Made by a program: the position numbers and the translations under genes
Shown here: positions 14,281-30,605 of the stretch, piece by piece
How the letters are laid out: every line of letters begins with the position of its first letter
Numbering within the stretch: position 1 is the first letter of the stretch
The notes under the pieces: generated by a model
Told to the model about the DNA's origin: nothing
Seen by the model: only the letters and a program-made list of their open reading frames with translations
Databases searched by the model: none
NCBI RefSeq assembly: GCF_002087085.1
Contig: NZ_MWQY01000002.1
Coordinates: 1 to 64,000 of the forward strand
Direction: 5' to 3'
DNA: 64,000 nt

Positions 14281-14329
14281 TTGACAGCAACCAAAACCCC
14301 TGCTATCGTTTTCATTGAATCGTTCCAAT
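14281..14329 (+). promoter_or_regulatory. Sigma70 promoter plus LacI-type operator of the radical-enzyme operon
   Basis: TTGACA (14281)-N17-TATCGT (14304) with extended TG; ATTGAATCGTTCCAAT at 14314-14329 is the exact reverse complement of the 12254 site. Confidence 0.78.
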
Positions 14330-14378: not shown

Positions 14379-15392
14379 ATGAAAAAGATTGTTGGACTGA
14401 CTCTCGCACTGATGCTGATCTTCAGCCTTGCTTCCTTTGCGGAAGGCGGAAAAGAGAGCGGAACACCTGAGTCCATTACTCTCGTCGGCGGCGTCATGCT
14501 TCCCAAGGGACATGTATACTATCAGGCAATGGAAAAGTTTGTTGAGCTCCTCGATGAGTACTACACCGGTCCCATCGAACTGAAGTACGAACTTCACCAC
14601 TCCGGCTCCATCGGAACCGAAAAGGACATGTTCGAGTTCATGATGCAGGGAGTTTCCGTAGACTTTGCGGTTGTATCCCCCGCGTGGGCCGCAACCTGGG
14701 ACAAAACAGCCCCCATCATCGACGCACCCTTCCTTTTCAGGAGCATCGAGCACTGGGAACAGTCCCTTGAAGCCGGCGCCCTCGACTCTATCGCGGAAAC
14801 CATTCGGAAAAAAGGCGTCCGTTTCATCGGTTACGGCGGAGGCGGAGCCCGCAGCCTGATCCTGAATCAGCCGGTCAGCAGCCTCGAAGACTTCGGCAAG
14901 ATCGACCTGCGGGTCCAGGGTTCCCCCCTGCACGCCGCGGTATTCGGCGCCATCGGCCTGAACCCCACTCCCCTGGACTATACCGAGGTATATAACGCCA
15001 TAAAAACCGGTGTTGTCGACGGTCTCGAGAACGAACCCGCCGGACTTGAGGGCATGAAATTCTACGAGGTCGCTCCCTACTATGCTCTTTCCGAGCATCA
15101 GATCACCACCCGTATCCTCTGCTTCTCCGAGTCTAGACTTCAGAGCTTTCCCCAGGACCTGCAGGATGCCATTATAAAGGCCGGACTCGACGCCGGACGC
15201 TGGCACCGCAAGGCGGAAGTGGCTCTGGGACAGCAGATCATAGACAAACTGGTAGCCGGCCATGGCCTCAAGGTAATCGAGTTTACCAAAGCGCAGAAAG
15301 ACGAGATGGCCCGCAGGGCAATGCCGGAAGTAATGAAGTACGCCGAAGAAGTCGGTGCCACCGATATCGTCGAAACAATCCAGAATCTCTAG
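14379..15392 (+). CDS. dctP: TRAP substrate-binding protein
   Basis: Signal peptide, DLRVQ, EVYNAIKTGVVDGLENE. Confidence 0.9.
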   Translation: MKKIVGLTLALMLIFSLASFAEGGKESGTPESITLVGGVMLPKGHVYYQAMEKFVELLDEYYTGPIELKYELHHSGSIGTEKDMFEFMMQGVSVDFAVVSPAWAATWDKTAPIIDAPFLFRSIEHWEQSLEAGALDSIAETIRKKGVRFIGYGGGGARSLILNQPVSSLEDFGKIDLRVQGSPLHAAVFGAIGLNPTPLDYTEVYNAIKTGVVDGLENEPAGLEGMKFYEVAPYYALSEHQITTRILCFSESRLQSFPQDLQDAIIKAGLDAGRWHRKAEVALGQQIIDKLVAGHGLKVIEFTKAQKDEMARRAMPEVMKYAEEVGATDIVETIQNL

Positions 15393-15467: not shown

Positions 15468-16025
15468 ATGCCCTTGAAACTGTTTGATCTGTACGCGAAA
15501 TTCCTTATCCGCGTAATGATTGTCCTGATGTTCATCCTGCTGGGCGCCGTCGCCCTGACTGTTGCAGGCCGCTACATACCCTTTATTCCCCGCTTCCTGT
15601 GGACCCTGGAAGTCACCAACATATCCCTTATCTGGATGGTTTTTGTGGGCTCGGTAGTCGGCCTCAGGGAATCCCGGCACTTCTACATCGATATCTTCGC
15701 CGGCGGAGTCCCTCCATGGTTCGAAATGTTTCTAAAAATTCTCAACTATTTTGTTACGCTGACTGTCACCTATGTATTTGTCCGTTACGGATACCGCTTT
15801 TTTATGCAGTGGGGACTGATCCAGACCTCTGAGCTTACCGGTATAAATCTTGGTTTTCTCTATGCCTCGGTCCCCTTTGCCGGCGTATCATGGCTGATAT
15901 TCTTGATTGAGAGGTTTTACCACGACTTTATAAAAAAGGACCAGACGGAAGAACACCACATGGCCGATTCCTACCAGGTCCATCACGAAGATGAAGACAC
16001 TAAAGAAGGAGAAACGGACAAATGA
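15468..16025 (+). CDS. dctQ: TRAP small permease
   Basis: Four TM segments, WTLEV, RHFYID; lies between dctP and dctM. Confidence 0.85.
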   Translation: MPLKLFDLYAKFLIRVMIVLMFILLGAVALTVAGRYIPFIPRFLWTLEVTNISLIWMVFVGSVVGLRESRHFYIDIFAGGVPPWFEMFLKILNYFVTLTVTYVFVRYGYRFFMQWGLIQTSELTGINLGFLYASVPFAGVSWLIFLIERFYHDFIKKDQTEEHHMADSYQVHHEDEDTKEGETDK

Positions 16026-17326
16026 CAGCTGGAACAGTCGCCGCGATAATGTTCATACTGCTTATCGTCCTCATTATTTTACGCGTTCCGGTCAGTTTTA
16101 CCCTGGCCTTCGCCGTTGTACCTATTCTTTTGCTCACTCCCAGGGTCTCGCCGCTCATGCTGCTGCAGCGCATGATGGTTCAGTACGGGTCCTTTCTGCT
16201 ATTATCGATACCCTTCTTCTTACTGGCCGCTGTCATCATGAACGAGGCCAAGATCACCGACCGGCTGATCAGGTTCTCCCGCTCCATGGTGGGACCCCTT
16301 CCCGGCGGTCTTGGCCACGTTAATGTTGCGGTAAGTATGCTCTTTGCAGGTATCTCCGGTTCCTCCAATGCGGATGCCGCCGGTATCGGTTCCGTACTTA
16401 TTCCCGCCATGGAGAAAGAGGGCTACGACAAGAACTTCACCGTAGCCGTTACAGCCTGTTCGGCGGTAATGGGAAACATCATTCCCCCAAGTATTACCAT
16501 GGTTGTGTGGGGCGGGGTCATGAGTACCTCCGTTTCCGGGCTCTTTCTGGCCGGCTTTGTTCCCGGCGTAATGATCGCCCTCTTTCAGATGGCCCTGGTA
16601 CTCTACTTTGCCCTCAAGCGGGGATATCCCCGGGACGCGCGATTCAGCATAAAGGAATTTATTCAGAGCTTTCGCGGAGCAATCCTGGCCCTGGTTACAC
16701 CGCTGATTATCGTCGGCGGTATCGTCTTCGGAATCGTTACCCCCACCGAAGCTTCCATGGTGGCGGTTATCTACTCCCTTTTCCTGGGTATGTTCATCTA
16801 CAAAACCGTCTCCTTCAACAAGTTTGTCGGTCTCATGCTGGATACCGCCAAGCTGGCTTCCATCGTGCTCTTTGCCGTAGGAAGCGCCTCCATATACGGC
16901 TGGGTCCTGGCCTACTACAAAATCCCGAACTTCCTGGTTGACGTTCTCGGCGGTATTACGACCACACCCTCCCTGATGCTCATGATCTTTGTGGGAATTT
17001 TCCTGCTGGTGGGAACCTTCATGGACTCCGTTCCCGCCATCGTCATCCTCGGGCCCCTGCTCGCTCCCATTGCAGAGCATGTCGGGATACACCCCCTTCA
17101 CTTCGCCATCGTGGGAGTTGTCTCCCTGGCCTTCGGACTGGTAACCCCTCCCTACGGGCTCTGCCTGCTGATATCCAGCGAGATCGCCGGGATTAACGCC
17201 ATGCGTCCCCTCAAGGAGGTCGGACTCTTCCTGCTTTCCATGCTGGCGGTATTGCTTCTGATCATATTCTTTCCGTCCCTGACCCTGGCTATTCCCCAGG
17301 CCTTCATGCCGGAACTCTTTTTATAG
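16022..17326 (+). CDS. dctM: TRAP large permease
   Basis: SIPFFLLAA, GISGSSNADA, IIPPS, TPTEA, VTPPYG. Confidence 0.93.
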   Translation: MTAGTVAAIMFILLIVLIILRVPVSFTLAFAVVPILLLTPRVSPLMLLQRMMVQYGSFLLLSIPFFLLAAVIMNEAKITDRLIRFSRSMVGPLPGGLGHVNVAVSMLFAGISGSSNADAAGIGSVLIPAMEKEGYDKNFTVAVTACSAVMGNIIPPSITMVVWGGVMSTSVSGLFLAGFVPGVMIALFQMALVLYFALKRGYPRDARFSIKEFIQSFRGAILALVTPLIIVGGIVFGIVTPTEASMVAVIYSLFLGMFIYKTVSFNKFVGLMLDTAKLASIVLFAVGSASIYGWVLAYYKIPNFLVDVLGGITTTPSLMLMIFVGIFLLVGTFMDSVPAIVILGPLLAPIAEHVGIHPLHFAIVGVVSLAFGLVTPPYGLCLLISSEIAGINAMRPLKEVGLFLLSMLAVLLLIIFFPSLTLAIPQAFMPELFL

Positions 17327-17332
17327 ACTGTT

Positions 17333-18859
17333 ATGAAAGATAAAATACTGAGCGCCGAAGCCGCCGTCGCCCTCATAGGGGACGGCGCACGGGTTGCCCT
17401 CCACGGTTCGGGGGGCGGCATCTGTGAACCCACCCTGCTGTTGAAGAAGCTGGGAGAACGCTTTCAGAAAAACGGAAACCCAAAGGGAATAAGCATTGTC
17501 CATTCCACGGGCATAGGCAACAAGGAGGGCACCGGAATCGACCTTATCGCCTTTGCGGGCCTTGTCAAGCGTGACATTGCAGGACATTTCGGGATGTCCC
17601 CCAAAATGGGAGAGCTGATCCTGGGAAACCAGGTGGAGGCCTATAACTTTCCCCAGGGGGTACTCTCCCATATGTTTCACGCCGTGGCTGCCAGAACACC
17701 GGGGGTCATTACCAAGATAGGCCTCAACACCTACGTGGACCCGCGCCTCGAGGGCGGAAAGGCCAACGATCTCGCCACGGAAGACCTGGTAAAGGTCATA
17801 GAACTGGATGGCGAAGAGTGGCTCTTCTTCCCCCGCTTTGAGTTCGACTTTGCCTTTGTCCGGGGAACCACCGCCGACCTTAACGGAAATATAACCAATG
17901 AGGAAGACGGGCCCTTTCTGGAGGGGATGGCAATCGCCCAGGCAGTCAAAAACTGCGGAGGGACGGTTATAGCCCAGGTCAAGTATCTGGCTGAGAACGG
18001 AACCCTGGACCCGCAGCAGGTACGTATCCCGGGAATCTACGTCGATCATATCGTCGTGGATCCCGAACAGACCCAGACCTGTCTGCACAGCTACGAACCC
18101 TCCTTTGCCGGGAAGGTCCGGATTCCCCTTACAAGGATGGAACCCCTGTCCCTGGGACCGAAGAAGATTATTGCCCGGCGGGCGGCGAAGGAACTCTTCG
18201 AAGGAGCCATCGTAAACCTTGGATATGGCGCACCTGACGGAGTGGCAGCCGTGGCTTCCGAAGAAGGCATCCTGGACAAGTTTACCCTGACCGTCGAACA
18301 GGGATCCATCGGCGGACGTCCCGCGGGGGGCGTAGTCTTCGGCACCGCCTACAACCCGGAGGCCATAATTCCCATGGACGCCCAGTTCACATTCTACGAC
18401 GGCGGCGGGCTGGATCTGGCCTATCTTGGCATGGCCCAGGTCGATCAGCACGGGAACGTCAACTCCAGCCGGGTCGGACGCATGCTCGCAGGCTGCGGAG
18501 GCTTCATCAATATTACCCAGAACGCAAAAAAGGTGATCTTCTGCGGGACCTTTACTGCCAAGGGGCTCAAGTGCTCCGTGGGAGACGGCAAAATCAGCAT
18601 CGACCAGGAAGGTTCGGTACGGAAATTCGTGGACCGGGCGGCCCAGATCACCTTCAGCGGTGATTACGCCGGCAGCCTCGGACAGCCGGTACTCTATGTC
18701 ACGGAACGGGCGGTTTTTTCCCGCAGCCCGGAAGGGCTGATGCTGGAGGAGATTGCCCCGGGAGTCGACCTTGAACGGGACATTCTGGCACATATGGATT
18801 TCAAGCCCCTTATTTCACCGGATCTGAAAGAGATGGACCCGGACTTCTTCCGGGAGTGA
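17333..18859 (+). CDS. Family I acyl-CoA:carboxylate CoA-transferase (YdiF/propionate CoA-transferase-like, fused)
   Basis: EAYNFPQG, GLNTYVDPR, VNLGYG, catalytic TVEQG, GCGGFINITQ, YVTERAVF, EIAPGVD. Confidence 0.9.
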   Translation: MKDKILSAEAAVALIGDGARVALHGSGGGICEPTLLLKKLGERFQKNGNPKGISIVHSTGIGNKEGTGIDLIAFAGLVKRDIAGHFGMSPKMGELILGNQVEAYNFPQGVLSHMFHAVAARTPGVITKIGLNTYVDPRLEGGKANDLATEDLVKVIELDGEEWLFFPRFEFDFAFVRGTTADLNGNITNEEDGPFLEGMAIAQAVKNCGGTVIAQVKYLAENGTLDPQQVRIPGIYVDHIVVDPEQTQTCLHSYEPSFAGKVRIPLTRMEPLSLGPKKIIARRAAKELFEGAIVNLGYGAPDGVAAVASEEGILDKFTLTVEQGSIGGRPAGGVVFGTAYNPEAIIPMDAQFTFYDGGGLDLAYLGMAQVDQHGNVNSSRVGRMLAGCGGFINITQNAKKVIFCGTFTAKGLKCSVGDGKISIDQEGSVRKFVDRAAQITFSGDYAGSLGQPVLYVTERAVFSRSPEGLMLEEIAPGVDLERDILAHMDFKPLISPDLKEMDPDFFRE

Positions 18860-18869
18860 GGACCTTTTC

Positions 18870-19646
18870 ATGATTACCACTGTAAAAATCGAACTGCGCG
18901 CCCCGGTGGCGCGCATCATTTTCAGCGTTGATCCGCCGGGAAAACCCCCGGCGGTGGATTATGATGTTATCGACCAGCTGGAGGAGGCTGTAAAAGGTAT
19001 CGCCTCCGCAGGTCCCGATATTCGTCTGGTCCTTGTGGAGAGTTCGGAACCCAGATATTTTGTAGTCGGGGCCAACCTGAAGGCCCTGCAGCAGATCGAC
19101 AGCCAGAGTATCCGACCCTGGGTACGCCGGGGACACGATGTATTCAACATGCTGCAGGAACTGGAGCTTCCGGTCATCGCTGTTGTGCGCGGCTTTGCCG
19201 GCGGAGGCGGACTTGAGCTGGCCCTGGCCTGCGACTTTATCTATGCCGCCGATAATGCCCGTTTCGCCCTGCCGGAAGCAGGGCTGGGTCTTATTCCCGG
19301 CTGGGGAGGGAGTCACCGCCTTCCCTTAAGGATCGGCGCAGCCCGGGCCAAGGAGATGGCCTTCTCCGCCCGGCCGATCGATGCCGCAACTGCCTATGAC
19401 TGGGGACTGATCAACTGGTACGGACCGGAAGAGGAGCTTCAGCAAAAGCTCGAGGAGATCTCCGCAAGCATCAGCGCAAACAGCCGGATATCCGTGGCCA
19501 TGGAAAAACAGCTTATCAATTCCGCTGACAGTCCGGACAATCCCCGCATGAAATTCGAAGAGGCCGCCGCCTCCACCGCCGCCATGAGTTCCAGCGATAC
19601 CTCCCGCAGACTTGAGGAGTTTTTCGAAAAACGGCGGAAAAAATAG
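18870..19646 (+). CDS. Enoyl-CoA hydratase/isomerase (crotonase family)
   Basis: GGGGLELALACD and LPEAGLGLIPGWGG; both catalytic Glu present. Confidence 0.9.
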   Translation: MITTVKIELRAPVARIIFSVDPPGKPPAVDYDVIDQLEEAVKGIASAGPDIRLVLVESSEPRYFVVGANLKALQQIDSQSIRPWVRRGHDVFNMLQELELPVIAVVRGFAGGGGLELALACDFIYAADNARFALPEAGLGLIPGWGGSHRLPLRIGAARAKEMAFSARPIDAATAYDWGLINWYGPEEELQQKLEEISASISANSRISVAMEKQLINSADSPDNPRMKFEEAAASTAAMSSSDTSRRLEEFFEKRRKK

Positions 19647-19672: not shown

Positions 19673-22054
19673 ATGTCGTATCTGGACAACCCCATCCGGC
19701 TGCAGGAAGTCCGCAGTTTCTACCTTGAACGTCTTCTCAAGCCGAAGCTTACATCTGAACGGGCGGATATCGTGACCAGGTCCTATGCCCGAACCGAAGG
19801 TTCCCATCCCATAACCCGGCGGGCACAGGCCCTTAAGGACATCCTTGCCGAAATGAGCATCTACATCAAACCCTGGGAACTCCTGGCGGGCAATCTTGGA
19901 CCGGAACCCGTCTCCGCTCCGGTATTTCCCGAGGGCGGTGCCGATTTTATCCTCGAAGAGATGGACAGCTACGGCACCCGGCCGGGAGACAAGTTCGAAG
20001 TCAGCGAAGAGACAAAAACAGAGCTCCGGAGGATCCTTCCCCTGTGGAAAGGAAAAACCCTGAAGGAGTACGGCCTCTCCCTGATGCCGGAAGGTCCGGT
20101 ACGGATGCGGGAAGCCGGGGTATTCTCCGCGGAAAACATGCTCACCTGCGGTACCGGACACTTTCTGCCGGATTATACCAAGGTACTGGAGCAGGGCTTT
20201 CGCGGCATAAGCGAACAGGCTAAAGCAGCCCTTATGACCCTGGACCTGAGCCGGGAAGAGGGATACGAAAAACGCATCTTTTACGAGGCCGTGCTGACCA
20301 TCTGTGCCGCCGTCAGAGACTTCTCCCTCCGTTACGCCGAGCTTGCCGATTCCATGGCCGCTGAAGAAAAGGAGGAAGAACGGCGAAGGGAACTGAAAAA
20401 AATCGCGGAGGTCTGCCGCAGGGTGCCCTGGGAGCCCGCCGCAGGTTTCGCCGAAGCCGTCCAGAGCCTCTGGTTCACCCACCTGGTCTGTTATATCGAC
20501 TCCAACGGTTACGGCGTAACCCTGGGACGCTCCGCCTCCTGTCTGTATCCCTGGTATCGATCAAGTATTGCTTCCGGAGAGATCGACAGGGAAGGAGCGC
20601 TGGCTCTTCTTGTAAGTCTCTTTTTCAAGACAAACGACATCCTGAAGCTCTACAACAACAACGCCGCCCAGAATTACGGCGGCTTTCCCGTGGGACAGCC
20701 GGTCCAGCTGGGGGGAATCAACGCCGCCGGAGAGGACGATACCAACGAACTGAGCTTCCTCTTTCTGGAGGCGGAGAAAAAGGTAAAACTTTATCAGCCG
20801 GATATCGGCTTTCTGTGGACCGAAAAGATCAATCCCGGGTTTTTCCGGGCGGCAACGGAACTTGTGGCAACAAACTCAAAGCCCAAGTTTTTCAACTACC
20901 ATGTGGGTTCCGCCATGTACCGCCAGGCGGGATTATCGGAAGAGACTGCCCAAAAGGACTGGGCCTTTATCGGCTGCGTCGAATACGGAGTCCCGGGTAA
21001 AACCTGGACCTGGGCCGACGCCGCCATGTTCAACCTGGCAAAATGCCTTGAACTGGCCCTTAACGACGGGATAGACCCGGTAAGCGGCAGCCGCCTCGGG
21101 CCCCAGACAGGAAGCCCGGAGGACTTCAAGGATTTCAGCCAGTTTCTCTCCGCCCTGCAGCGGCAGATTGCCTACATGTTTGACCTGACGGTTCAGGGCA
21201 TAACCGCTTTACAGGTTGCCCATAAACACTGCTGGCCGGAACCCTACGAATCTCTGCTTGTAGACGGCTGCATGCAGAGCGGCAGGGAGGTCAACCAGGG
21301 CGGCGCCACATCCTACCACACAGGCGTCCAGTTCGTGGGATTCGCCACGGTGGTGGATTCACTGCTTGCGATAAAACACTTTGTGTTCGAGCACCGGAGC
21401 ATAAACTTCCGGGACCTGGTGGACAACCTTGGAGAAAATTTCAGGAATAATGAGGTACTCCGTGTACGTCTTTTGCGGGAGACCCCCCGGTTTGGTATGG
21501 ACAGGGATGATATAAACTCCCTGGCGGGAGAGGTTTTCACCTACTGCTGCGACACCGCAGGCCGTTACCGGGATATATGGGGAGGGCTCTATACTGCAAG
21601 TCTCTACAGCCTCACGGCCCATGTAGGTTTCGGCGCCCGGGTCGGGGCGACTCCGGACGGCCGGATGGCCTTCTCTCCCCTATCCGATGCCAGTTCACCA
21701 TCTCAGGGACTGCAGAACGGCTCCGTGACCGAGATCTTCACCACCCAGTCGAAGCTCCCTCACCACAAGGCCATAAACGGTACCCTGCTGAACATGAAGC
21801 TCAACAAGAAACTGCTGTCCGGCCCGGAAGGAACGGCCAGGCTGCAGAACCTTATAAGCACCTACTTCAAGATGGGAGGCTTTCATGTTCAGTTCAATGT
21901 CGTGGACGTGGAGGTTCTCAAGGATGCCCAGGCGAATCCGGACAAGTATCCAGATTTCCTGATCCGGGTCGCCGCTTACGTTACCAACTGGAATCAGCTG
22001 AGCCGGGATGTTCAGAACGAGATAATATCCCGGGCCGAGATGGAGAGTTTTTAG
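19673..22054 (+). CDS. Glycyl-radical-enzyme-family protein with Ala at the radical site (putative alanyl/aminoacyl radical enzyme)
   Basis: 793 aa GRE fold: RRAQAL, ELLAGN, GHFLPDY, GCVE (Cys435), ATPDGR, NGTLLNMK, HVQFNVVD; C-terminal LIRVAAY instead of RV(A/S)GY. Confidence 0.9.
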   Translation: MSYLDNPIRLQEVRSFYLERLLKPKLTSERADIVTRSYARTEGSHPITRRAQALKDILAEMSIYIKPWELLAGNLGPEPVSAPVFPEGGADFILEEMDSYGTRPGDKFEVSEETKTELRRILPLWKGKTLKEYGLSLMPEGPVRMREAGVFSAENMLTCGTGHFLPDYTKVLEQGFRGISEQAKAALMTLDLSREEGYEKRIFYEAVLTICAAVRDFSLRYAELADSMAAEEKEEERRRELKKIAEVCRRVPWEPAAGFAEAVQSLWFTHLVCYIDSNGYGVTLGRSASCLYPWYRSSIASGEIDREGALALLVSLFFKTNDILKLYNNNAAQNYGGFPVGQPVQLGGINAAGEDDTNELSFLFLEAEKKVKLYQPDIGFLWTEKINPGFFRAATELVATNSKPKFFNYHVGSAMYRQAGLSEETAQKDWAFIGCVEYGVPGKTWTWADAAMFNLAKCLELALNDGIDPVSGSRLGPQTGSPEDFKDFSQFLSALQRQIAYMFDLTVQGITALQVAHKHCWPEPYESLLVDGCMQSGREVNQGGATSYHTGVQFVGFATVVDSLLAIKHFVFEHRSINFRDLVDNLGENFRNNEVLRVRLLRETPRFGMDRDDINSLAGEVFTYCCDTAGRYRDIWGGLYTASLYSLTAHVGFGARVGATPDGRMAFSPLSDASSPSQGLQNGSVTEIFTTQSKLPHHKAINGTLLNMKLNKKLLSGPEGTARLQNLISTYFKMGGFHVQFNVVDVEVLKDAQANPDKYPDFLIRVAAYVTNWNQLSRDVQNEIISRAEMESF

Positions 22055-22059
22055 GCGCC

Positions 22060-23001
22060 GTGGATAATACCGTGCACAACGAAATCAGGGGGACAGTTTT
22101 TAACTGCGAAACCTTCAGCCTCCACAACGGACCGGGTATACGGACGACCCTTTTTCTCAAGGGCTGTCCCCTGCGCTGCCTGTGGTGCGCCAACCCTGAA
22201 AGCTGGAGTATGGAAGCCGAAGTCAGCTACAACCGGGAACTCTGCATCCCTGAATGCCACGAATGCGAGAAGGTTGCCGGAAGCGGCCTTCTTGAACGGG
22301 ACCGTGAGGGAAAAATTGTCATACCTCCCGCAGCCCCGCGAAGCGATCCTGCCCTTATAGCCGCTGCCCGGGCCTGCCCCGCCCGGGCGCTTTCGGTTGA
22401 GGGTTACACCATATCCGTGGACGAAGCCGCAAAGCTGCTCTGCAGGGACCGGCCTTTTTTCGAGGAATCCGGAGGCGGAGTTACCCTCTCCGGGGGTGAA
22501 CCTCTTCTGCAGCCCGAATTTTCGGCTGCGCTCCTGGGACGCCTGAAAACAGAGGGAATTCACACAGCCCTGGATACCTGCGGAGATGCTGCCCCGGAAG
22601 TATACAGGGAAGTTAGCAGTCTTGCAGACCTCATCCTCTTCGATTTCAAGGCCGCCCACAGCGGACTCCACAGGGAATGCACCGGACAATCCAACGAGAG
22701 GATTCTGGTGAACCTGGAGCAGACTGCCGCGGAACGTCCGGAGCAGCTGCGGGTACGTATTCCCTTTATTCCCGGACTCAATGGAACCGAAGGGGAGTTA
22801 TCTGCCATGGCCAGGGTATTAAAGGGACTGGGGATATCCCGGGCGGAACTTCTTCCTTACCATCGCCTGGGAATTCACAAGTACCGGCAGCAGGGCAAGG
22901 AATATACTTTGGGATCAGTGGAAATCCCGGGTTCGGAAATCCTGAAGACAGCAGTCCGTATCTGCAGGGACCTGGGAGTCGAACTGCATATACAGCACTA
23001 G
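22060..23001 (+). CDS. Radical-SAM GRE-activating enzyme
   Basis: GPGIRTTLFLKGCPLRCLWCANPES (CX3CX2C), SGGGVTLSGGEP, LLPYHRLG; GTG start inferred just after the upstream stop. Confidence 0.92.
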   Translation: MDNTVHNEIRGTVFNCETFSLHNGPGIRTTLFLKGCPLRCLWCANPESWSMEAEVSYNRELCIPECHECEKVAGSGLLERDREGKIVIPPAAPRSDPALIAAARACPARALSVEGYTISVDEAAKLLCRDRPFFEESGGGVTLSGGEPLLQPEFSAALLGRLKTEGIHTALDTCGDAAPEVYREVSSLADLILFDFKAAHSGLHRECTGQSNERILVNLEQTAAERPEQLRVRIPFIPGLNGTEGELSAMARVLKGLGISRAELLPYHRLGIHKYRQQGKEYTLGSVEIPGSEILKTAVRICRDLGVELHIQH

Positions 23002-23007
23002 AAGAGC

Positions 23008-23682
23008 CTAGTTCTTAACCTGGGACTCCTGGACCATATTCCCCTGGATTACCAGGGTGAGGACCCGGATTTTACTGTTCTCGATATGCCGGGTAAGCAG
23101 TTCCGAGGCTTTCTCGATATCCCGGATACAGAGGGCGTCTATCAGCTCTATATGCTCCTGGATAGTGACATCCTTGGAAAACTGCTGCCTCAGGCTCAGC
23201 TCCCAGAAGGTCTGGGTAAGCCGGTACAGCTGATCCAGCATACGGATAAGCCGCCGCCTGCCGCTGGATTGAATAAGATAGGAGTGAAAATACCCGTCCA
23301 CCCGTGCATGCTCCTGGAAGTCGAGACTGTCCTTCAACCCCAGGATAAGGGCCTTCATTTCAAGCAGCTTCTGTATGCTCAGAGAGTTTGCCGCCCTTCG
23401 CAGGGCCAGAGACTCGAGTTCCCTGCGCAGTTCGTAAATATCCTCGAGATCGTCCGCGGTAAAGGGAAAAATACGGGCTCCCCTCTTGGGAAGAATCTCT
23501 ATCAGGTGGTCCTGTTCGAGATTCTGCAGTACACTGCGCACCGGGGATCTGCTGACATTGAACTCCCGGGCCAGGAGGTCCTCCCGCAACCAGGTATCTT
23601 CAGGATATTCGTTTTGTATTATCCTGTTGAAAAGGGTGGTGTAAATTTCATGCCGAGTCGTTTTAGTATTCTTGTTTTCCAT
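23008..23682 (-). CDS. GntR-family regulator (FCD)
   Basis: VSRSPVR HTH, EDIYELRRELE, FH, EH, HIENS. Confidence 0.9.
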   Translation of the reverse strand: MENKNTKTTRHEIYTTLFNRIIQNEYPEDTWLREDLLAREFNVSRSPVRSVLQNLEQDHLIEILPKRGARIFPFTADDLEDIYELRRELESLALRRAANSLSIQKLLEMKALILGLKDSLDFQEHARVDGYFHSYLIQSSGRRRLIRMLDQLYRLTQTFWELSLRQQFSKDVTIQEHIELIDALCIRDIEKASELLTRHIENSKIRVLTLVIQGNMVQESQVKN

Positions 23683-23839: not shown

Positions 23840-23957
23840 TCAGCAAAGCTTATGGAAAATGTTTGACGTAAAGTCCATATCGTAGTATAAAGGATGTAAT
23901 ACAACCCTTTATCTCTGGGTTGTACAAATACTAAATCTTGTGGAAAAGGAGTTTTTC

Positions 23958-25118
23958 ATGCAAGGAAAAAAATGGCTAGGTAAACTTTCCATTTCTCTCT
24001 TGGTAGTGTTGTCTCTTCTTGCCGTTTCATGCGCCAAAGAAGAGCCTGCCCAGGCTGCAGCCCCCGCGGCTCCCGCCGAATCTCAGCAGGCAGCATCCTC
24101 TGAGGCCATCCCCGACATGATCGATATGACCATGCCTTCGAGTACGGTTACCCTCAGACTGGCTTACGATGACCCCACCCTCTGGCCCAAGCAGGCAAAT
24201 GTTCCCGACCCCGAGCATGCTCAGGCACTGCTCTTCAAGGACTACGTGGAAAGCCAGACCGGCGGAGCTGTCAAGATTGACCTCTACGGTGCCGGCCAGC
24301 TCGGAACCTACCGGGAAACCCTGGAAATGGTTCAGCAGGGCTCCATGGACATCAACATTGGTACCGGATCTCTCGGTTCTTTCTTTGATCCCTTCCAGAT
24401 CTTCACCATCCCCTACCTCTTCAGCTCAGACGACATCGCCGTCGGCTACTTCGAGCGGAGCGAATGGTGGGCAGACCTGATGGATCAGATGGAAGACGAA
24501 ACCGGCATGAAGTACCTCGGTATGGGTCAGAACGGCTGGAGAAACTTCACCAACAACGTACGTGAAATCCGCAAACCCGAAGACCTCAAGGGCATCAAGT
24601 TCCGCGTTATGCAGAGCCCCGTATACGTGAAGATGATCGAGTCCATGGGCGGAAGCGCTGTTCCCATCGCCTGGAACGAGCTCTACACCGCACTGCAGAC
24701 CGGTGTTGTTGACGGCGAAGAGAACCCCATCTCCTCCATCGCCCTGGGTAAACTCCAGGAAGTTCAGAAATACCTGACCATGGACGGCCACGTATGGTCC
24801 GAAAACGTCATGGTTATGAACGCTGCGAAGTTCAACGACATGCCCGTAGGCGTTCAGCAGATCCTGGTTCAGGGCGGAATGCTGGCAGCTCGTGCCAACA
24901 ACGTTGCAGAGAGAATGGTATCCAATATCGTCAAGTTCGAAGAAGTTGCCAAGCAGATGCAGGTTTACTTCCCCACCGCCGGCGAAAAGGCTGAATTCCG
25001 CAAGGTTTCCCAGCCCGCGGTTATCGAATACCTGGAAGGCGAGCTTGGAGAAGACATGGTTAACGGCTTCCTGACCAGTGTTCAGCAGATGGAAGCAGAA
25101 CTCGGTTGGAGACGCTAA
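23958..25118 (+). CDS. dctP: TRAP substrate-binding lipoprotein
   Basis: Lipobox LAVSC, Ala/Pro linker, IKFRVMQ, ELYTALQTGVVDGEENP. Confidence 0.9.
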   Translation: MQGKKWLGKLSISLLVVLSLLAVSCAKEEPAQAAAPAAPAESQQAASSEAIPDMIDMTMPSSTVTLRLAYDDPTLWPKQANVPDPEHAQALLFKDYVESQTGGAVKIDLYGAGQLGTYRETLEMVQQGSMDINIGTGSLGSFFDPFQIFTIPYLFSSDDIAVGYFERSEWWADLMDQMEDETGMKYLGMGQNGWRNFTNNVREIRKPEDLKGIKFRVMQSPVYVKMIESMGGSAVPIAWNELYTALQTGVVDGEENPISSIALGKLQEVQKYLTMDGHVWSENVMVMNAAKFNDMPVGVQQILVQGGMLAARANNVAERMVSNIVKFEEVAKQMQVYFPTAGEKAEFRKVSQPAVIEYLEGELGEDMVNGFLTSVQQMEAELGWRR

Positions 25119-25162
25119 TCTCTTCTTGCCTTTTTTCTACCGACACCCCTTAAGGGTGTTGC

Positions 25163-25199
25163 GATGGCAGTCCGCTCTCACAGGCGGGCTGCCGTCTTT
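25163..25199 (+). terminator. Stem-loop after dctP
   Basis: GATGGCAGTCCGC-loop-GCGGGCTGCCGTC-TTT. Confidence 0.55.
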
Positions 25200-25237
25200 A
25201 TCTAATCTACTTCGCTATCAATTGGAGATAATCACCA

Positions 25238-25753
25238 ATGGTAAAATATCTGAAACAAGCCAGTGACATTGTGCATGTGGTCACCAAGTGGTGGCTCTTT
25301 GTCTATGTCCTGTCCGTAACTATTCTGGCGATTGTCGGCGTCTTCTTCCGCGCCATCGGGAACTCCCTCTCGTGGAACGAGGAACTTATGCGCTGGATAC
25401 TCATCGGTATCGGTTACATCGGAGCTGCGGTGGCCCTCAAGGAACGGAGCCACATAGGCATTGAGTTTTTCATTACCCGGATGAAGCCCAAACTCCGCAA
25501 GTTCTCCATTATCCTCGGATACCTTACAATCGTCCTTTTTCTGCTTGTTGTACTTATTTACGGTTACAAATCCGCAGACGTCGCCTGGCGACAGAAGGGG
25601 TCGATTCTGCGAGTTCCCATGTACTGGGTTAAACTAAACCTGCCCCTGGGCTCACTGTTCATGCTCGTTCACATGACCTACTTCACCGTCGGTTTCTTTA
25701 AGGAGAAAGGCGATGACCGTGAGTACCTGCTGAGCGGCGGACACGACTTTTAA
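25238..25753 (+). CDS. dctQ: TRAP small permease
   Basis: WNEELMRW, SHIGIE, four TM segments. Confidence 0.88.
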   Translation: MVKYLKQASDIVHVVTKWWLFVYVLSVTILAIVGVFFRAIGNSLSWNEELMRWILIGIGYIGAAVALKERSHIGIEFFITRMKPKLRKFSIILGYLTIVLFLLVVLIYGYKSADVAWRQKGSILRVPMYWVKLNLPLGSLFMLVHMTYFTVGFFKEKGDDREYLLSGGHDF

Positions 25754-25770
25754 GGGAGCCGGAGAATTTT

Positions 25771-27066
25771 ATGAATATTGCAGTATACACAATGGTTTTC
25801 CTTTTTGTAATTCTTCTTGTAATAGGCGTACCCATCGCCTTTGTACTGGGTCTGGTACCCCTTATCTACCTCCTCTTCTTCAAAGGTCTTCCCCTTATAG
25901 CCATTGCCTCGAAACTCTACGGAGGGATCGATAACTACGTTCTGTTGGCCCTGCCCTTCTTTATCCTCGCCGGTAACATAATGAACAACACGGGAATAAC
26001 GAAGGACCTGGTCAACTTTGCGCGTCTTCTGGTCGGTCGTGTCCGGGGTGCCCTGGCGCAGGTAAATATCGTCGTCAGTATCGCCTTTGCGGGTCTCACC
26101 GGAGCGGCTGTTGCGGACACCGCGGCCATCGGCTCCATTCTGATTCCCGCCATGAAGGAAGAGGGCTATTCCGCAGAATACTCTGCGGCTGTTACCACGG
26201 CCTCCTCGGTTATCGGACCGATCATTCCCCCCAGCATAATCATGGTAATTTATGCCTCGGTTACCGGAGAATCCGTAGGAGCCCTGTTCATGGGCGGCTT
26301 CCTCCCCGGTCTCGCGGTGGCCCTCTCCCTGATGATCCTGGCCTATATTTACGCCATCAGGCTGAACCATCCGAAGCGGACAGAACGGATCAGCGCCAAA
26401 GAAGCCTTCTACATAATCCGTCGATCCGTTCTTGCAATGATGGTCCCCCTTATAATCATCGGTGGTATTCTTACCGGTGTCTTTACCCCCACGGAAGCTG
26501 CAGCTGTTGCCTGTCTCTACGCTTTTCTGGTAGGCGTGTTCTATTACAAAACCCTTACCGTGAAGAACATGATCGACAGCCTCATTGACGCAGGCCGGGT
26601 TTCTGCAACCATCCTGCTGATCATCTCCGCAAGCCAGCTCTTCAGCATGGTACTGACCATCGAGAAGATCCCCGAGCATATTGCCGAGGTGATGACCTCC
26701 GTCATTACCAACAAGTATGTCTTCCTGCTGGTTGTCAACGTGCTGTTCTTCTTTATGGGAATGGTTATGGAGATATCCGCCAGCGTTATCATGCTCACCC
26801 CCATCCTGCTGCCTCTGGCCATGGAATACGGTGTACATCCCCTGCACTTTGCCCTGATCATGCTGGTCAACCTGAATATCGGCCTTACCACGCCGCCTGT
26901 TGGGGTATGTCTCTTTACGGCTGTGCCGATTGCCAAGTGTTCCGTGGAAAAGATGGTCCCCAAGGTAATGCCCTTTGTAATCGCCGAGATGATCGCTGTT
27001 CTGTTTATTACCTATGTTCCGGAGATCACCCTCTTCCTGCCGAGACTCACGGGCTTTATCGAATAG
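25771..27066 (+). CDS. dctM: TRAP large permease
   Basis: LALPFFILAG, GAAVAD, GPIIPPS, FTPTEAA, TTPPVG. Confidence 0.93.
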   Translation: MNIAVYTMVFLFVILLVIGVPIAFVLGLVPLIYLLFFKGLPLIAIASKLYGGIDNYVLLALPFFILAGNIMNNTGITKDLVNFARLLVGRVRGALAQVNIVVSIAFAGLTGAAVADTAAIGSILIPAMKEEGYSAEYSAAVTTASSVIGPIIPPSIIMVIYASVTGESVGALFMGGFLPGLAVALSLMILAYIYAIRLNHPKRTERISAKEAFYIIRRSVLAMMVPLIIIGGILTGVFTPTEAAAVACLYAFLVGVFYYKTLTVKNMIDSLIDAGRVSATILLIISASQLFSMVLTIEKIPEHIAEVMTSVITNKYVFLLVVNVLFFFMGMVMEISASVIMLTPILLPLAMEYGVHPLHFALIMLVNLNIGLTTPPVGVCLFTAVPIAKCSVEKMVPKVMPFVIAEMIAVLFITYVPEITLFLPRLTGFIE

Positions 27067-27149: not shown

Positions 27150-28454
27150 TTACAGAAGATTCCCTTCAGCATCGAACTCCATCTCTTTCGGGTCCTCGAG
27201 GATCTCGATATCCGGGTTCTTTTTTGCCTCATCCAGCATGGATTCGGAAATCCAGATCTCATCCACGTGGGAGGAGTTCCGTATTCTCAAGACTCTGGGA
27301 TTGTCCACACCGTTACCCGTGCGCACATACATGGCGGCCTGAATGGCGAGACGGTCGGTTTTCAGTACCATGGGCATACGGACGGTTATGGCAACTCTGG
27401 CGGTCAGGGCGTTGGGATAGCCCGCATCGAAGTCCGCCTGATCAAAAACCTTCCTGGTTGTGTAATTGGCCATGCCTATTCCGATACAGTTACCGTGGGT
27501 TGCCTCGGAAAGGTTCAGTACTACATACTCCTCCACCCTGGGGGGACCCGAGGCAAACTCGGTACAGTAACTTCCCGTAATATTGGGATCCATACCGTCT
27601 CCGGAATGGTTCTTTCCTATCTCATCCACCACCATGATGTCGAGCTTGTCAAAAAAGATCCGCGCCATCTTTTCCTTGGCTTCCTTAAGAAGCTTCGGCT
27701 CCTCCTCGGGGATCTCTTCTGGGGTAAGGGCGATAATGCGGTTGGTCTCGTCATGGGCATTCTCGATGATGGAGAGCCCGAAGAGAATATTGGCATTCTT
27801 CAGAATAGCCATTCCGTAGGCTACAACATTCTCCGCCATCTTGCGGAAACCCTGGCTGTGACAGGCCTCGGCCCCCTGGTGCTTGGCAACTCCAATAGCC
27901 ATCATCTTGAGCATGCCGCTCTCGTAGGGCCCCCTGAAAGCCGTATGGGCTTTTATTCTTCCCACCAGGACTATGCCGTCAGCCTCCGAGGCATACTTGT
28001 CAATATAAACAGGGCGCCCGTCCTCAAGGGTGGCCACCTGCACGACCTCCATGGAGGCCTTTATCGGGGCTCCCACATATTCCTCGGTAACGCCGAAACC
28101 TTCGATCATTTCCCGTTGACCTTCCGCGGTTCCGCCGCCGTGGCTCCCCATGGCGGGGAAGACAAAGGGTTTTGCGCCCAGTTCTTTAAGGGCCGCAACG
28201 GTCTCCCTGATGATCAGGGCGATATTGGCAATACCGCGGCTGCCGCAGGTAACCGCAACGGTCATTCCCGGTTTTATGGTTCCCGCGATCTTCTGCTGGT
28301 TTATCTGCTTCTTTATTTCCCCTGGAATATCTTCCAGTACGTCGTCATTCAGTTTCTGACGGACCTTGACCATCCTTGGAAGCGGGGTACCGCCAATCAT
28401 TCGTTGGACAACACCATTCCGATCCCAGACACTTTCGCGCAGATTAGTACTCAT
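27150..28454 (-). CDS. Lactate racemase (LarA) N-terminal-domain family protein
   Basis: GSRGIANI, PAMGSHGG, RIKAHT, ESGMLKMMAIG, GKNHSGDGMDPN; start at MSTNLR. Confidence 0.75.
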   Translation of the reverse strand: MSTNLRESVWDRNGVVQRMIGGTPLPRMVKVRQKLNDDVLEDIPGEIKKQINQQKIAGTIKPGMTVAVTCGSRGIANIALIIRETVAALKELGAKPFVFPAMGSHGGGTAEGQREMIEGFGVTEEYVGAPIKASMEVVQVATLEDGRPVYIDKYASEADGIVLVGRIKAHTAFRGPYESGMLKMMAIGVAKHQGAEACHSQGFRKMAENVVAYGMAILKNANILFGLSIIENAHDETNRIIALTPEEIPEEEPKLLKEAKEKMARIFFDKLDIMVVDEIGKNHSGDGMDPNITGSYCTEFASGPPRVEEYVVLNLSEATHGNCIGIGMANYTTRKVFDQADFDAGYPNALTARVAITVRMPMVLKTDRLAIQAAMYVRTGNGVDNPRVLRIRNSSHVDEIWISESMLDEAKKNPDIEILEDPKEMEFDAEGNLL

Positions 28455-28853
28455 TCCACACACTCCCTCTAGTACAGGTATTCGATTATGTTAAAATACA
28501 ATTATCTTCTATAATCATTACTTTATCAACAATAATATCAAAATTGTATTAAGGTAACCCGGGGGAACAGGGGATTTCAGCACATGCCGGGCTGCAGGAG
28601 TTCACCCCACGGATTCTCTGCAGCCTGCGGGTGATTGCCCGGATCACACATTCGGCAGATTATTCAGTATCCTGAATACTGTACCTATATACTAATATAC
28701 ACATAACCTGTTCCTGAGTAAAAGTCGCTTTCCCCGGATTAAGCAGAAATTGCTCAAGATAAGTATACAATTTAATACAATCAAAGCCCTTTTGGTTGCG
28801 TAATAACAATAATTGGCGTACAATATGAGAACACTTTTTGACAGGAGTCATTT

Positions 28854-30605
28854 GTGAAAGGTTTTTTCAACCGAATACTCAGAATCGATGCAACAGATCA
28901 CAGTTTTACATATGAGGACATTTCCGACGATATTCTCAAAACAACCCTTGGGGGAAAGGGCCTGGGGACCCATCTGCTGACGGAGGAGAACCCTCCCGGC
29001 GTCGATCCCTTTTCTCCGGAAAATCGCCTGATTATCTGTGTCGGTCCTATAACCGGCACCCGTATATGGAGCCAGTCCCGGTATGCCGTCTTTTCCAAAA
29101 GTCCTGCTACAGGAGGTTTCTGCGAATCCTACTGCGGAGGAGAACTTGCCCCAAAAATCAAGGGCTGCGGAGTGGATGCAATCATCATACAGGGGAAAAG
29201 CAGCTCCCGGGTATACCTCAGCATAGACGAGGAGGGGGTCGAGTTCCACGACGCCGGGGAAATCACGGGTGCAGAATGCTATGACGCTGAACGCTACATC
29301 CTCTCCAGAGCCGGCAAGGGTGCCGGAGCGATGGTTATAGGTCCCGCAGGGGAGAACCTGGTGGCCCAGGCGGCCATAAAATCCGATCTGTGGCGGAGTG
29401 CCGGGCGCGGCGGGCTGGGAGCAGTAATGGGATCCAAGGAAATAAAGGGGATTTCCTTCAAAGGGACAAAAAAGGCTGAAATAGCTGATCCTGAGAAACT
29501 GACGGAGCTGGTCAAGAAGATCGCCACAACCTGGAAAGACTCTCCGGTAACAAAGAAATACCAGACCTACGGTACCCCCTCCCAGGTGGCGGTAACCAAC
29601 GGCGCAGGCTGCTTTCCAACCCGCTACTGGCAGAGCGGGGTATCGGAACACTGGCAGAACCTGAGTGCCGACTATATGCATGAGCATTTCGAGGTGTCCA
29701 GGCACGGATGTCCTTCCTGCTTTCTGCAGTGCACCAAGCACGCAAAAGTAAAGTCCGGAAGGCACGCGGGGCTCGAGATCGACGGCCCGGAGTACGAAAC
29801 CATCTATGCCCTGGGGGGACTGAACTGTCTTGATTCCCTGGAAGAGGTCGCCTGGCTCAACGACATCTGCGACCGCCTGGGGCTGGACACCATGAGTGCA
29901 GGAAATCTCTCTGCCCTGGCGGTGGAAGCCTACAAATGCGGTAAAACCGATTTCGCCATCGATTACAACCAGCCCGACCGGATGGCGGAGTTTTTCAGGC
30001 TCCTTGCCAATGCGGAAGGTGTGGGTGCCATCTTTGCGAAGGGTATAAAAACCGCCGCCGCGGAACTTGACCTTGAGGATATCGCAATTCATGTAAAGGG
30101 CCTCGAGCCGGCAGGATTCGATCCCCGGGTTCTCAAAGGCATGGGGCTCTCCTATGCCACGTCTCCCCGGGGCGCCTGTCACCTTCGGGGGACCTTTTAC
30201 AAGGCGGAACTTACCGGCGAGGTCGACCCCGAGGAGATCTCCGGCAAGGCGCGCTATCACATTGACTACGAAGACCGGGCGGCCCTTTTTGATTCAATGA
30301 TTCTCTGCCGCTTTTTCCGGGATTTTTATCTCTGGGATGAACTTTCCGAGATGATTGAAGCCACAACAGGCATGAAGATGGACAAGGAAGAACTGGAGCT
30401 TCTTGCCAACCAGATTACCCAGAAGACCAGGGCTTTTAACCGAAGGGAGGGGATAGGCCCGGAACAGGACACCCTGCCGAAGAGACTGCTCAAGGAAGCT
30501 ACAAAAGAGGGGGCCGTACTCACCGAAGCGGACCTTCAGATAATGATACGGGAATACAATAATATAAGGAAAGAACGGGATGAAAAAGCACACGTTATCA
30601 GTTGA
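28854..30605 (+). CDS. Aldehyde:ferredoxin oxidoreductase family (W/Mo-pterin)
   Basis: KSPATGG, IGPAGEN, AGRGGLGAVMGSK, CPSCFLQC, GPEYET, GLDTMSAG, RGACH, LCRF. Confidence 0.92.
   Translation: MKGFFNRILRIDATDHSFTYEDISDDILKTTLGGKGLGTHLLTEENPPGVDPFSPENRLIICVGPITGTRIWSQSRYAVFSKSPATGGFCESYCGGELAPKIKGCGVDAIIIQGKSSSRVYLSIDEEGVEFHDAGEITGAECYDAERYILSRAGKGAGAMVIGPAGENLVAQAAIKSDLWRSAGRGGLGAVMGSKEIKGISFKGTKKAEIADPEKLTELVKKIATTWKDSPVTKKYQTYGTPSQVAVTNGAGCFPTRYWQSGVSEHWQNLSADYMHEHFEVSRHGCPSCFLQCTKHAKVKSGRHAGLEIDGPEYETIYALGGLNCLDSLEEVAWLNDICDRLGLDTMSAGNLSALAVEAYKCGKTDFAIDYNQPDRMAEFFRLLANAEGVGAIFAKGIKTAAAELDLEDIAIHVKGLEPAGFDPRVLKGMGLSYATSPRGACHLRGTFYKAELTGEVDPEEISGKARYHIDYEDRAALFDSMILCRFFRDFYLWDELSEMIEATTGMKMDKEELELLANQITQKTRAFNRREGIGPEQDTLPKRLLKEATKEGAVLTEADLQIMIREYNNIRKERDEKAHVIS

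Follow-up and report, generated by a model that had tools for sequence, protein, structure and literature searches.

Aminoacyl radical enzymes (AAREs) are homologues of glycyl radical enzymes (GREs) whose radical position is occupied by Ala, Ser or Thr; according to Fu et al. (JACS 2024, PMC11528403), 17 alanyl (AREs), 21 seryl (SREs) and 71 threonyl radical enzymes (TREs) were catalogued from NCBI nr. Among them, DgARE from Desulfoscipio geothermicus DSM 3669 has its radical site at A762, and the quartet in its electron paramagnetic resonance (EPR) spectrum was assigned to a C-alpha alanyl radical. The same paper describes AAREs as resembling GRE eliminases most, with functions that are not known. 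A mid-2026 review sees the bottleneck in how few homologues come from cultured isolates (PMC13450708), and our literature search on AARE function and 'alanyl radical' returned nothing beyond the 2024 paper and reviews. Here, we compare with these systems a gene of a 64,000-nucleotide stretch of DNA (contig NZ_MWQY01000002.1, positions 1 to 64,000; "the window" in the following). It is an uninterrupted open reading frame (ORF) at 19673-22054 of the forward strand and encodes a 793-residue GRE homologue whose radical Gly is replaced by Ala768.

The initial annotation of the gene had stated that Ala, Ser and Thr variants form alpha-carbon radicals, which the alanyl radical of DgARE bears out (PMC11528403). 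Its estimate of novelty was too high. That is, the class was published in 2024 and the window protein is therefore an added member and not the discovery of a class. It comes from a subclade and a phylum (spirochaetes) that are absent from the main text of that paper, where the strings 'Marispirochaeta' and 'Spirochaet' do not occur. New in this analysis are the operon of TRAP (tripartite ATP-independent periplasmic) transporter, CoA-transferase, enoyl-CoA hydratase, ARE and activating enzyme, the enrichment of TRAP transporters beside AREs and the retained residue set of the glycerol dehydratase (GDH) type.

Alanine at the radical position

The translation ends in ...DFLIRVAAYVTNWNQLSRDVQNEIISRAEMESF (also given as ...FLIRVAAYVTNWNQLSRDVQNEIISRAEMESF) and matches the Pfam families PFL-like (E 7.6e-181, residues 16-654) and Gly_radical (E 4.1e-24, residues 671-774), i.e., the GRE-fold protein is otherwise intact, as had been annotated. 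A full-length HMMER alignment to glycerol dehydratase 1r8w (E 2.2e-157) sets 'lirvaayvtnw' over 'livrvagysaqf' and thereby puts A768 (codon GCT, 21974-21976) on the position of the radical Gly. The Gly that canonical GREs carry in RVxG[FWY] is thus replaced by Ala768, while the GRE fold, Ala in the fingerprint, a mid-protein Cys, a CX3CX2C activase nearby and the clade placement are all those of an alanyl-type enzyme. The RVAAY fingerprint, the GCVE loop around Cys435 and the tail after the Tyr (VTNW instead of SAxF) were likewise found as first described. Val770 (21980-21982) belongs to an AAYV that is nearly universal in AREs; at the residue after the Tyr, Gly- and Thr-types usually carry Ser or Thr instead (GYS, TYS).

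We searched a collection of 5.8 billion proteins for homologues. This yielded 7999 scored candidates, 516 of them at E <= 1e-50, and the best 120 of these 516 were inspected; four C-terminally truncated matches (P0021, P0037, P0056, P0070) were excluded from motif reading. Within the best 120, RVAA[YF] is found in 33/33 full-length matches at 45-98% identity (P0002-P0020, P0023-P0036) as well as in three fragments and two 40%-identity proteins; the first RVAGY protein appears at 41% identity. The initial question whether close homologues share the motif is thus answered positively. A protein from a record labelled Marispirochaeta aestuarii is 98% identical. In an alignment of 25 sequences of the ARE clade, which are 40-88% identical to the query, R765, V766, A767, A768, Y769, G434, C435 and E437 are invariant.

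Since GCT is only one base away from the Gly codon GGT, the alanine could stem from an error in sequencing or from a mutation that recently inactivated the enzyme, which would make the gene a dead glycyl radical enzyme. Base 21975 was examined in Logan contigs of the DNA runs X1, X9 and X12, each from a different study; these contigs cover 21700-22200 at at least 99%. All three keep the C, no assembly carries GGT, and the single difference at the radical codon is T>C at 21976, which yields GCC and hence still Ala. Over 34 ARE loci from genomes and metagenomes, all four synonymous Ala codons are in use (GCT 16, GCC 12, GCA 4, GCG 2), and the nearest relative (L001, 93%) has GCC where the window has GCT. 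The ratio of nonsynonymous to synonymous substitution rates (dN/dS) relative to L001 is 0.058 for the ARE, compared to 0.030 and 0.095 for the CoA-transferase and the enoyl-CoA hydratase, respectively. Given in addition the Ala in all 33 full-length homologues among the best 120 of 516, the presence of an orthologue in 4/5 other genomes of the genus and radical formation demonstrated in a clade member (PMC11528403), the chance of a dead enzyme is practically negligible. Ala768 is neither a sequencing error nor a private mutation. Contigs of a metatranscriptome run (X19) lie at 21700-21928 and 22073-22200, with none across 21938-22056.

Next, we placed the protein among other GREs. A scan of one genome per species gave 16 loci including NZ_FOYM01000006 of D. 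geothermicus DSM 3669 (L010, 46% identity), in whose ORF the RVAAY motif has its second Ala at residue 762, matching the radical-site numbering of PMC11528403. From 197 collected proteins we retained 186 non-identical GREs of 740-870 aa (identical rows merged, fragments excluded) for FastTree. In this tree, one branch (SH-like 89) has 57/57 Ala-types on the same side, and another (99) the 10 Thr-types. In an IQ-TREE 'quick' run on 51 rows, the window protein, DgARE and further Ala-types (21/22 in all) form a single clade (SH-aLRT 100), to which the divergent Ala-type P0040/P0041 (RVAAYNAFF) is not firmly joined. The window protein's subclade is marked by 'RVAAYVTNW / GCVE[YF]G' at at least 60% identity, the subclade of DgARE by 'RVAAYVALF'. 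We thus consider it very likely that this protein is one of the AREs, a clade of the aminoacyl radical enzymes in the GRE superfamily.

Two further groups of sequences stood out in this survey. One metagenome contig of 3.5 kb (L067:152-2569) encodes a GRE with RVGAY, i.e., with the Gly/Ala order swapped compared to RVAGY. It is outside the ARE clade and sister to the Thr-types (SH-aLRT 99); this single contig may represent either an Ala-type enzyme of independent origin or an intermediate between Gly and Thr. In the 'RVAAYVAQF' subclade (L013, L015, L016, L026, L029), the Glu of the Cys loop is missing (GCVA, GCVT, GCVS), as is the equivalent of His163 (GN in place of GH). Judging from these residues, its members probably use a chemistry other than Glu-assisted elimination.

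Fold, active site and activase

An AlphaFold model was built on the 25-sequence alignment (pLDDT 89.6, pTM 0.91). It puts C435 at the tip of a hairpin (strands 431-433/437-439) and A767/A768 at the tip of another (strands 763-766/769-772). The best solved matches are 1,2-propanediol dehydratase 9rco (Z 48.6, root-mean-square deviation (rmsd) 1.6 over 774 residues) and 5i2g (Z 48.5), followed by glycerol dehydratase 1r8w (Z 48.1); for the diol dehydratases overall, the rmsd is 1.6-1.7 over 774-775 residues at 35-36% identity. Hydroxyproline dehydratases, CutC and PflD/YbiW score Z 45.7-47.6, pyruvate formate-lyase (PFL) scores Z 33.8. Also for the PFL equivalog TIGR01255, the protein reaches only 142 bits compared to a cut-off of 994. 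Its Cys loop has a lone Cys with a Glu two residues on, and PFL's adjacent Cys pair is not present. The earlier assignment of the single-Cys loop to the eliminase and not the PFL type is thus supported by structure and profile scores alike. By analogy, Cys435 would be the thiyl radical site and Glu437 the general base.

In the alignment to 1r8w, H163, C435, E437, D449 and Y645 fall on GDH H164, C433, E435, D447 and Y640, which we take to be active-site residues. H163 is conserved in at least 90% of the 25 clade members, and D449 is kept in the VTNW subclade only. In place of the 'MPAYYN' of diol dehydratases, residues 403-408 (20879-20896) read 'KPKFFN', which is common to AREs and their nearest Gly-type relatives. 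This pattern suggests that the catalytic core is probably diol-dehydratase-like with a remodelled, roomier pocket; that the two lysines could meet a carboxylate is speculation.

The activase starts with GTG 5 bases past the ARE stop, preceded by GGAG at 22043-22046, and scores 283 bits for NCBIfam TIGR02494 (glycyl-radical enzyme activating protein; cut-off 174). We surveyed the alignment column of its Asp172 in the activases of 96 fetched loci (L001-L096). The column holds Asp in 29/30 activases beside Ala-types (the exception, from L015, is N-truncated and has Gly) and in 5/5 beside Thr-types, compared to Glu in 33/34 beside Gly-types (exception L091_12579, Asp). Merging near-identical loci leaves about 22/23, 3/3 and 30/31, respectively. 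Glu is also what is found in the activases of L039, L048 and L016, whose Gly-type enzymes are the closest in the tree to AREs and TREs. Since the column resembles what we take to be the 'ribose motif' of radical SAM (S-adenosylmethionine) enzymes, it is a candidate determinant for hydrogen abstraction from a chiral residue. The accessible text of PMC11528403 does not mention it.

Only four more Cys (CIPECHEC ... ACP) lie between the CX3CX2C motif of the activase and its GGE. They suffice for a single auxiliary cluster, whereas eliminase-type activases commonly have two.

Operon and neighbourhoods

The coordinates of the genes and motifs are provided in the table. The operon is compact, with gaps of 6 (DctM to CoA-transferase), 10 (CoA-transferase to enoyl-CoA hydratase), 26 (enoyl-CoA hydratase to ARE) and 5 bases (ARE to activase), and a promoter-like site (consensus match only) is found ahead of its first gene at 14281-14309.

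Features of the window around the alanyl radical enzyme gene (positions of the whole stretch)
Feature	Position	Strand	Basis
TRAP solute-binding protein (DctP family), first operon gene	14379..15392	+	Pfam DctP E 8.6e-60; NCBIfam TRAP_S1 over cut-off
TRAP small membrane subunit DctQ	15468..16025	+	L001 orthologue (93% identical) matches Pfam DctQ E 3e-19
TRAP large membrane subunit DctM	16022..17326	+	L001 orthologue (95% identical) matches Pfam DctM E 2.8e-101
Fused family-I CoA-transferase	17333..18859	+	Pfam CoA_trans E 1.5e-33
Enoyl-CoA hydratase (crotonase family)	18870..19646	+	Pfam ECH_1 E 6.4e-41
Alanyl radical enzyme (ARE), 793 aa	19673..22054	+	ORF, Pfam, 1r8w alignment, clade, model
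Cys loop G434-C435-V436-E437	20972..20983	+	Context FIGCVEYGV; Cys435 = TGC, 20975-20977
Radical fingerprint R765-V-A-A768-Y769, Ala768 replacing Gly	21965..21979	+	CGG GTC GCC GCT TAC
Radical SAM activating enzyme (ARE-AE)	22060..23001	+	Pfam Radical_SAM, Fer4_12
Activase CX3CX2C motif, C36, C40, C43 (CPLRCLWC)	22165..22188	+	Sequence
Activase Asp172 (HTALDTCG)	22573..22575	+	Column separating activases of Ala/Thr-type from Gly-type enzymes
GntR/FCD regulator, convergent with operon	23008..23682	-	Pfam FCD, GntR; syntenic in L001, L003, L100, L101
Second TRAP transporter: DctP 23940-25118, DctQ 25238-25753, DctM 25771-27066	23940..27066	+	ORFs, Pfam
LarA-like protein, NCBIfam 'nickel pincer cofactor-dependent isomerase, group 22'	27150..28463	-	NF052515 526 bits vs cut-off 400
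Aldehyde:ferredoxin oxidoreductase (AOR)	28854..30605	+	Pfam AFOR_C E 8.6e-103, AFOR_N E 9e-70

The best solved relative of the first binding protein is 4nx1/4ovp (E 4e-64, Z 38.9, 36% identity), a liganded Sulfitobacter protein whose ligand may be a hexuronate. The CoA-transferase consists of 3-oxoacid CoA-transferase A and B halves and reaches 410 bits for the FadX-like NCBIfam model, i.e., less than its cut-off of 750. The enoyl-CoA hydratase contains GGGGLELAL and LPEAGLG. Here, GLELAL and LPEAG presumably mark the positions of crotonase's two catalytic Glu, from which we conclude that some pathway step interconverts a 3-hydroxyacyl-CoA and an enoyl-CoA.

ARE orthologues at 64-93% identity are present in 4/5 other species-level genomes of the genus; the fifth (94% complete, 630 contigs) has nothing above 36%. 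Beyond the family, only 1/35 genomes from other families of the class has an orthologue at at least 60%. The order of TRAP transporter, CoA-transferase, enoyl-CoA hydratase, ARE, activase, GntR regulator and second TRAP transporter is kept in the window, L001, L003, L100 and L101, i.e., in five species-level genomes of one genus. The check for a shared gene neighbourhood, with the activase adjacent, thus turned out positive as well. The LarA-like gene adjoins the second transporter in all of these except L001, which instead has genes of phosphotransferase-system EIIA (PTS-EIIA) and antiporter type.

To compare the surroundings of AREs with those of Gly-type enzymes, ORFs were called in the 96 fetched loci and each GRE was classified by its radical residue. 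Neighbours were marked with hidden Markov models (HMMs) built from Pfam-annotated proteins of the window and the fetched loci. We merged loci at a GRE identity of at least 90% and dropped those with less than 3 kb of flank (for AREs L014, L018 and L032); L005 is without its C-terminus. The window itself, which would fall in the L001/L017 group, was not counted. TRAP genes are found beside 11/26 ARE groups compared to 1/34 Gly-only groups (Fisher p 2e-4), where p-values of this test are optimistic because related loci were counted and the HMMs were built from ARE-locus proteins. GntR genes (6/26) as well as LarA-type, iron-dependent alcohol dehydrogenase (Fe-ADH) and IclR genes (each 4/26) are found beside AREs but beside 0/34 Gly-only groups. 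For 2-hydroxyacid dehydrogenases, the difference is not significant (5/26 vs 2/34). An activase is present in 23/26 ARE groups.

Downstream of the operon, the DctM of the second transporter is 49% identical to the DctM beside DgARE, and the LarA-like protein shows 40% identity over 417 aa to its counterpart there. A fused E1 gene follows the LarA-like and AOR genes. Members of the LarA superfamily act as racemases or epimerases on 2-hydroxy acids such as glycerate, 2,4-dihydroxybutyrate and 2,3-dihydroxybutyrates (PMC11770544); 'group 22' is not discussed there. The wider window is a sugar/sugar-acid island with a third TRAP transporter, an aldolase of the dihydrodipicolinate synthase (DHDPS) type, RpiB, a split transketolase, an FGGY kinase, short-chain dehydrogenases/reductases (SDRs), a 2-hydroxyacid dehydrogenase and an Fe-ADH. 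The same genome also encodes a canonical Gly-type eliminase-like GRE (G000:C34:60537-62879, RVAGFSVYF, GCVEPQ, 793 aa) and a PFL-like GRE (G000:C1:170790-172529, RVSGYAVNF, 769 aa).

Among the other ARE loci, a few have unusual arrangements. In L002:9968-13414, a metagenome-assembled genome (MAG) of Spirochaetota, the ARE (67% identical) has no stop codon after ...EMESF, and its frame continues for some 350 residues over the activase gene, itself encoded in another frame; either an error of the assembly or a genuine extension could account for this. Its neighbours are enolase-superfamily, GFO/IDH/MocA and xylose-isomerase-like genes. Archaeal AREs (45% identity) occur in the Bathyarchaeia MAG contigs L011 and L012, each with an adjacent activase followed by genes for a RuBisCO large-subunit homologue and a DUF998 protein. 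L016/L037 is a tandem array of two Gly-types (RVSGY, KVAGY), one ARE and two activases, and in L019 a Gly-type GRE and a TRAP system come after the ARE and its activase.

Proposed reaction, alternatives and known systems

We infer the course of the reaction by analogy with glycerol and propanediol dehydratase. The adjacent activase would cleave SAM and take the C-alpha hydrogen of Ala768, which would leave a stable, oxygen-sensitive alanyl radical. During turnover, the radical would move from Ala768 to Cys435, and the resulting thiyl radical would abstract a hydrogen from the carbinol carbon of the substrate. Glu437 would act as the base that deprotonates the substrate's hydroxyl while the neighbouring group, most likely OH, leaves in a 1,2-elimination, and the product radical would finally regain the abstracted hydrogen. 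The substrate would most likely be a hydroxy-carboxylate imported by the co-transcribed TRAP transporter. Its oxo-acid or semialdehyde product, or the reduced form thereof, would be processed as a CoA thioester by the operon's CoA-transferase and enoyl-CoA hydratase.

Three substrate schemes come into consideration, all of them hypotheses and none favoured by the data. Glycerate might be converted to malonate semialdehyde and, via 3-hydroxypropionate and 3-hydroxypropionyl-CoA, to acryloyl-CoA. A 3,4-dihydroxy acid or a 4-substituted 3-hydroxy acid might yield a 3-oxo acid and then a 3-oxoacyl-CoA, or the substrate might be a diol derived from a sugar acid. Any single named substrate is improbable. 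Taking membership and chemistry jointly, we lean slightly towards a functional ARE that works as an eliminase on an imported hydroxy-acid; the eliminase chemistry on such an acid, rated by itself, falls a little short of an even chance. The operon and the TRAP, LarA-like, AOR and alcohol dehydrogenase genes found again next to AREs from other phyla, DgARE among them, may even hint at AREs in general being radical dehydratases of imported (di)hydroxy-carboxylates, with the Glu-to-Asp exchange of the activase giving access to a chiral C-alpha hydrogen, but this generalisation is tentative and rather doubtful.

Several points weigh against this reading. With regard to the gene itself, the radical codon was checked in assembled contigs and not in raw reads. 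In the 1r8w alignment, GDH H281, S282 and Y339, presumably substrate contacts, are changed to Y280, G281 and G341; with three contact positions altered, we take it that the substrate is not glycerol and that the protein is not a glycerol or propanediol dehydratase as such. The score for TIGR01774 is 646 bits compared to a cut-off of 678, and the named eliminase equivalogs (HypD, CutC, HpsG, HpfG) give 454-488 bits at cut-offs of 1000-1100. For CutC, hydroxyproline dehydratases and PflD/YbiW taken together, the scores are 454-491 bits at cut-offs of 1050-1109. With regard to DgARE, its identity to the window protein is no higher than the 46% given above, and its pocket columns read L/A, S/S and H/N where the window protein has Y280/G281, Y438/G439 and A448/D449; given both, the two enzymes may use different substrates. 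In the neighbour test with its optimistic p-values, AOR genes are not significantly enriched (7/26 ARE vs 4/34 Gly-only groups, p 0.18), and CoA-transferase plus enoyl-CoA hydratase accompany AREs in only 2/26 groups, all of this genus (0/34 Gly-only). LarC (PF01969, TIGR00299) was not found in the window's 97% complete genome and LarE (TIGR00268) had no hit over cut-off there, and since both are needed for the nickel-pincer cofactor, the case for the LarA-like protein as a 2-hydroxy-acid racemase is weakened. The 2026 review knows of no AARE function elucidated so far (PMC13450708).

A true ARE could also carry out a reaction other than dehydration. That is, it might cleave a C-N or C-S bond next to the carbinol in the style of choline or isethionate lyase, e.g., turn a 3-hydroxy-4-ammonio or sulfo acid into a 3-oxo acid, or it might isomerise a sugar-derived acid like YbiW/PflD. 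CutC, PflD, YbiW and HypD are indeed within about 2.5 Z of the diol dehydratases (Z 45.7-46.7 vs 48.6) and have similar NCBIfam scores (454-491 bits), a 3-oxo acid as product would be in keeping with both the crotonase and the CoA-transferase halves of 3-oxoacid type, and both the sugar/sugar-acid island (transketolase, FGGY kinase, SDRs, DHDPS-type aldolase, RpiB) and the sugar-type genes next to the ARE of L002 would fit a sugar-derived substrate. However, no equivalog cut-off is approached, Pfam and NCBIfam reveal no amine-, sulfite- or phosphosugar-handling genes in the operon, and the His/Glu/Asp set of diol dehydratases is retained, such that we regard a non-dehydratase as unlikely, if well within reach. 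The genes for CoA-transferase, crotonase, ARE and activase are contiguous, separated by 5-26 bases, syntenic in five genomes of the genus and under strong purifying selection, which would also accommodate an ARE that acts on the CoA thioester made by the CoA-transferase, i.e., a radical acyl-CoA dehydratase or lyase alongside the crotonase and a new substrate class for the superfamily. This is very unlikely given that the two CoA enzymes are found in so few ARE groups and that the model closely matches small-molecule dehydratases (rmsd 1.6). Furthermore, we know of no eliminase-type GRE with a CoA ester as radical substrate.

Finally, the protein might be conserved without forming a radical in vivo, be it as a structural or regulatory paralogue or as a spare subunit for the genome's two Gly-type enzymes (RVAGF, RVSGY). 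The low radical yield of DgARE, where PMC11528403 reports a radical on just 4.5% of monomers, weighs against a functional ARE and would agree with such a role. It is nevertheless at odds with a dedicated, adjacent activase that is conserved alongside AREs and bears a clade-specific change, as well as with the invariance of C435 and E437 in all 25 sequences, and we deem it extremely unlikely.

If AREs are indeed dehydratases of imported (di)hydroxy-carboxylates, an aminoacyl radical enzyme would for the first time have been assigned a function. Asp172 of the activase, seen beside Ala- and Thr-types, would in addition be the adaptation for reaching the C-alpha hydrogen of a chiral residue, and the signature offers a mutational test of how such residues are handled. 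The compact, syntenic operon provides handles for finding the substrate, namely two binding proteins, a regulator and two CoA enzymes. In addition, the survey with its 57 distinct Ala-types, TRAP enrichment and activase signature would narrow the search to imported hydroxy-acids. Of practical value is the 98% identity to the named Marispirochaeta aestuarii protein, given the scarcity of AARE homologues in cultured isolates.

Compared to known systems, glycerol dehydratase (1r8w) and propanediol dehydratase (5i2g, 9rco) are the best matches of the window protein in both sequence and structure and share the Cys-then-Glu loop and the equivalents of His164, Asp447 and Tyr640. In contrast, their radical residue is Gly instead of Ala, and the window operon has a TRAP system and neither microcompartment nor diol-pathway genes. 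CutC, the hydroxyproline dehydratases and PflD/YbiW have the fold and the logic of the Cys-Glu loop in common with it, but are all Gly-type. With PFL, only the superfamily fold is shared; the Cys pair of PFL is not found in the window protein, and the genome has its own PFL-like gene (RVSGY) elsewhere.

DgARE belongs to the same all-Ala clade and shares the RVAAYV fingerprint, with its Ala762 aligned to A768, the GCVE Cys loop and the adjacent activase. The tails differ, reading VALFTQ in DgARE and VTNWNQ in the window protein. The order at the DgARE locus is IclR, 2-oxoacid:ferredoxin oxidoreductase, LarA-like protein, TRAP transporter, ARE, activase, Fe-ADH, 2-hydroxyacid dehydrogenase and AOR. 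That is, it lacks the CoA-transferase and crotonase of the window and instead has the Fe-ADH, the 2-hydroxyacid dehydrogenase and the 2-oxoacid:ferredoxin oxidoreductase, while a TRAP transporter, an AOR and a LarA-like gene (40% identical) are common to both loci.

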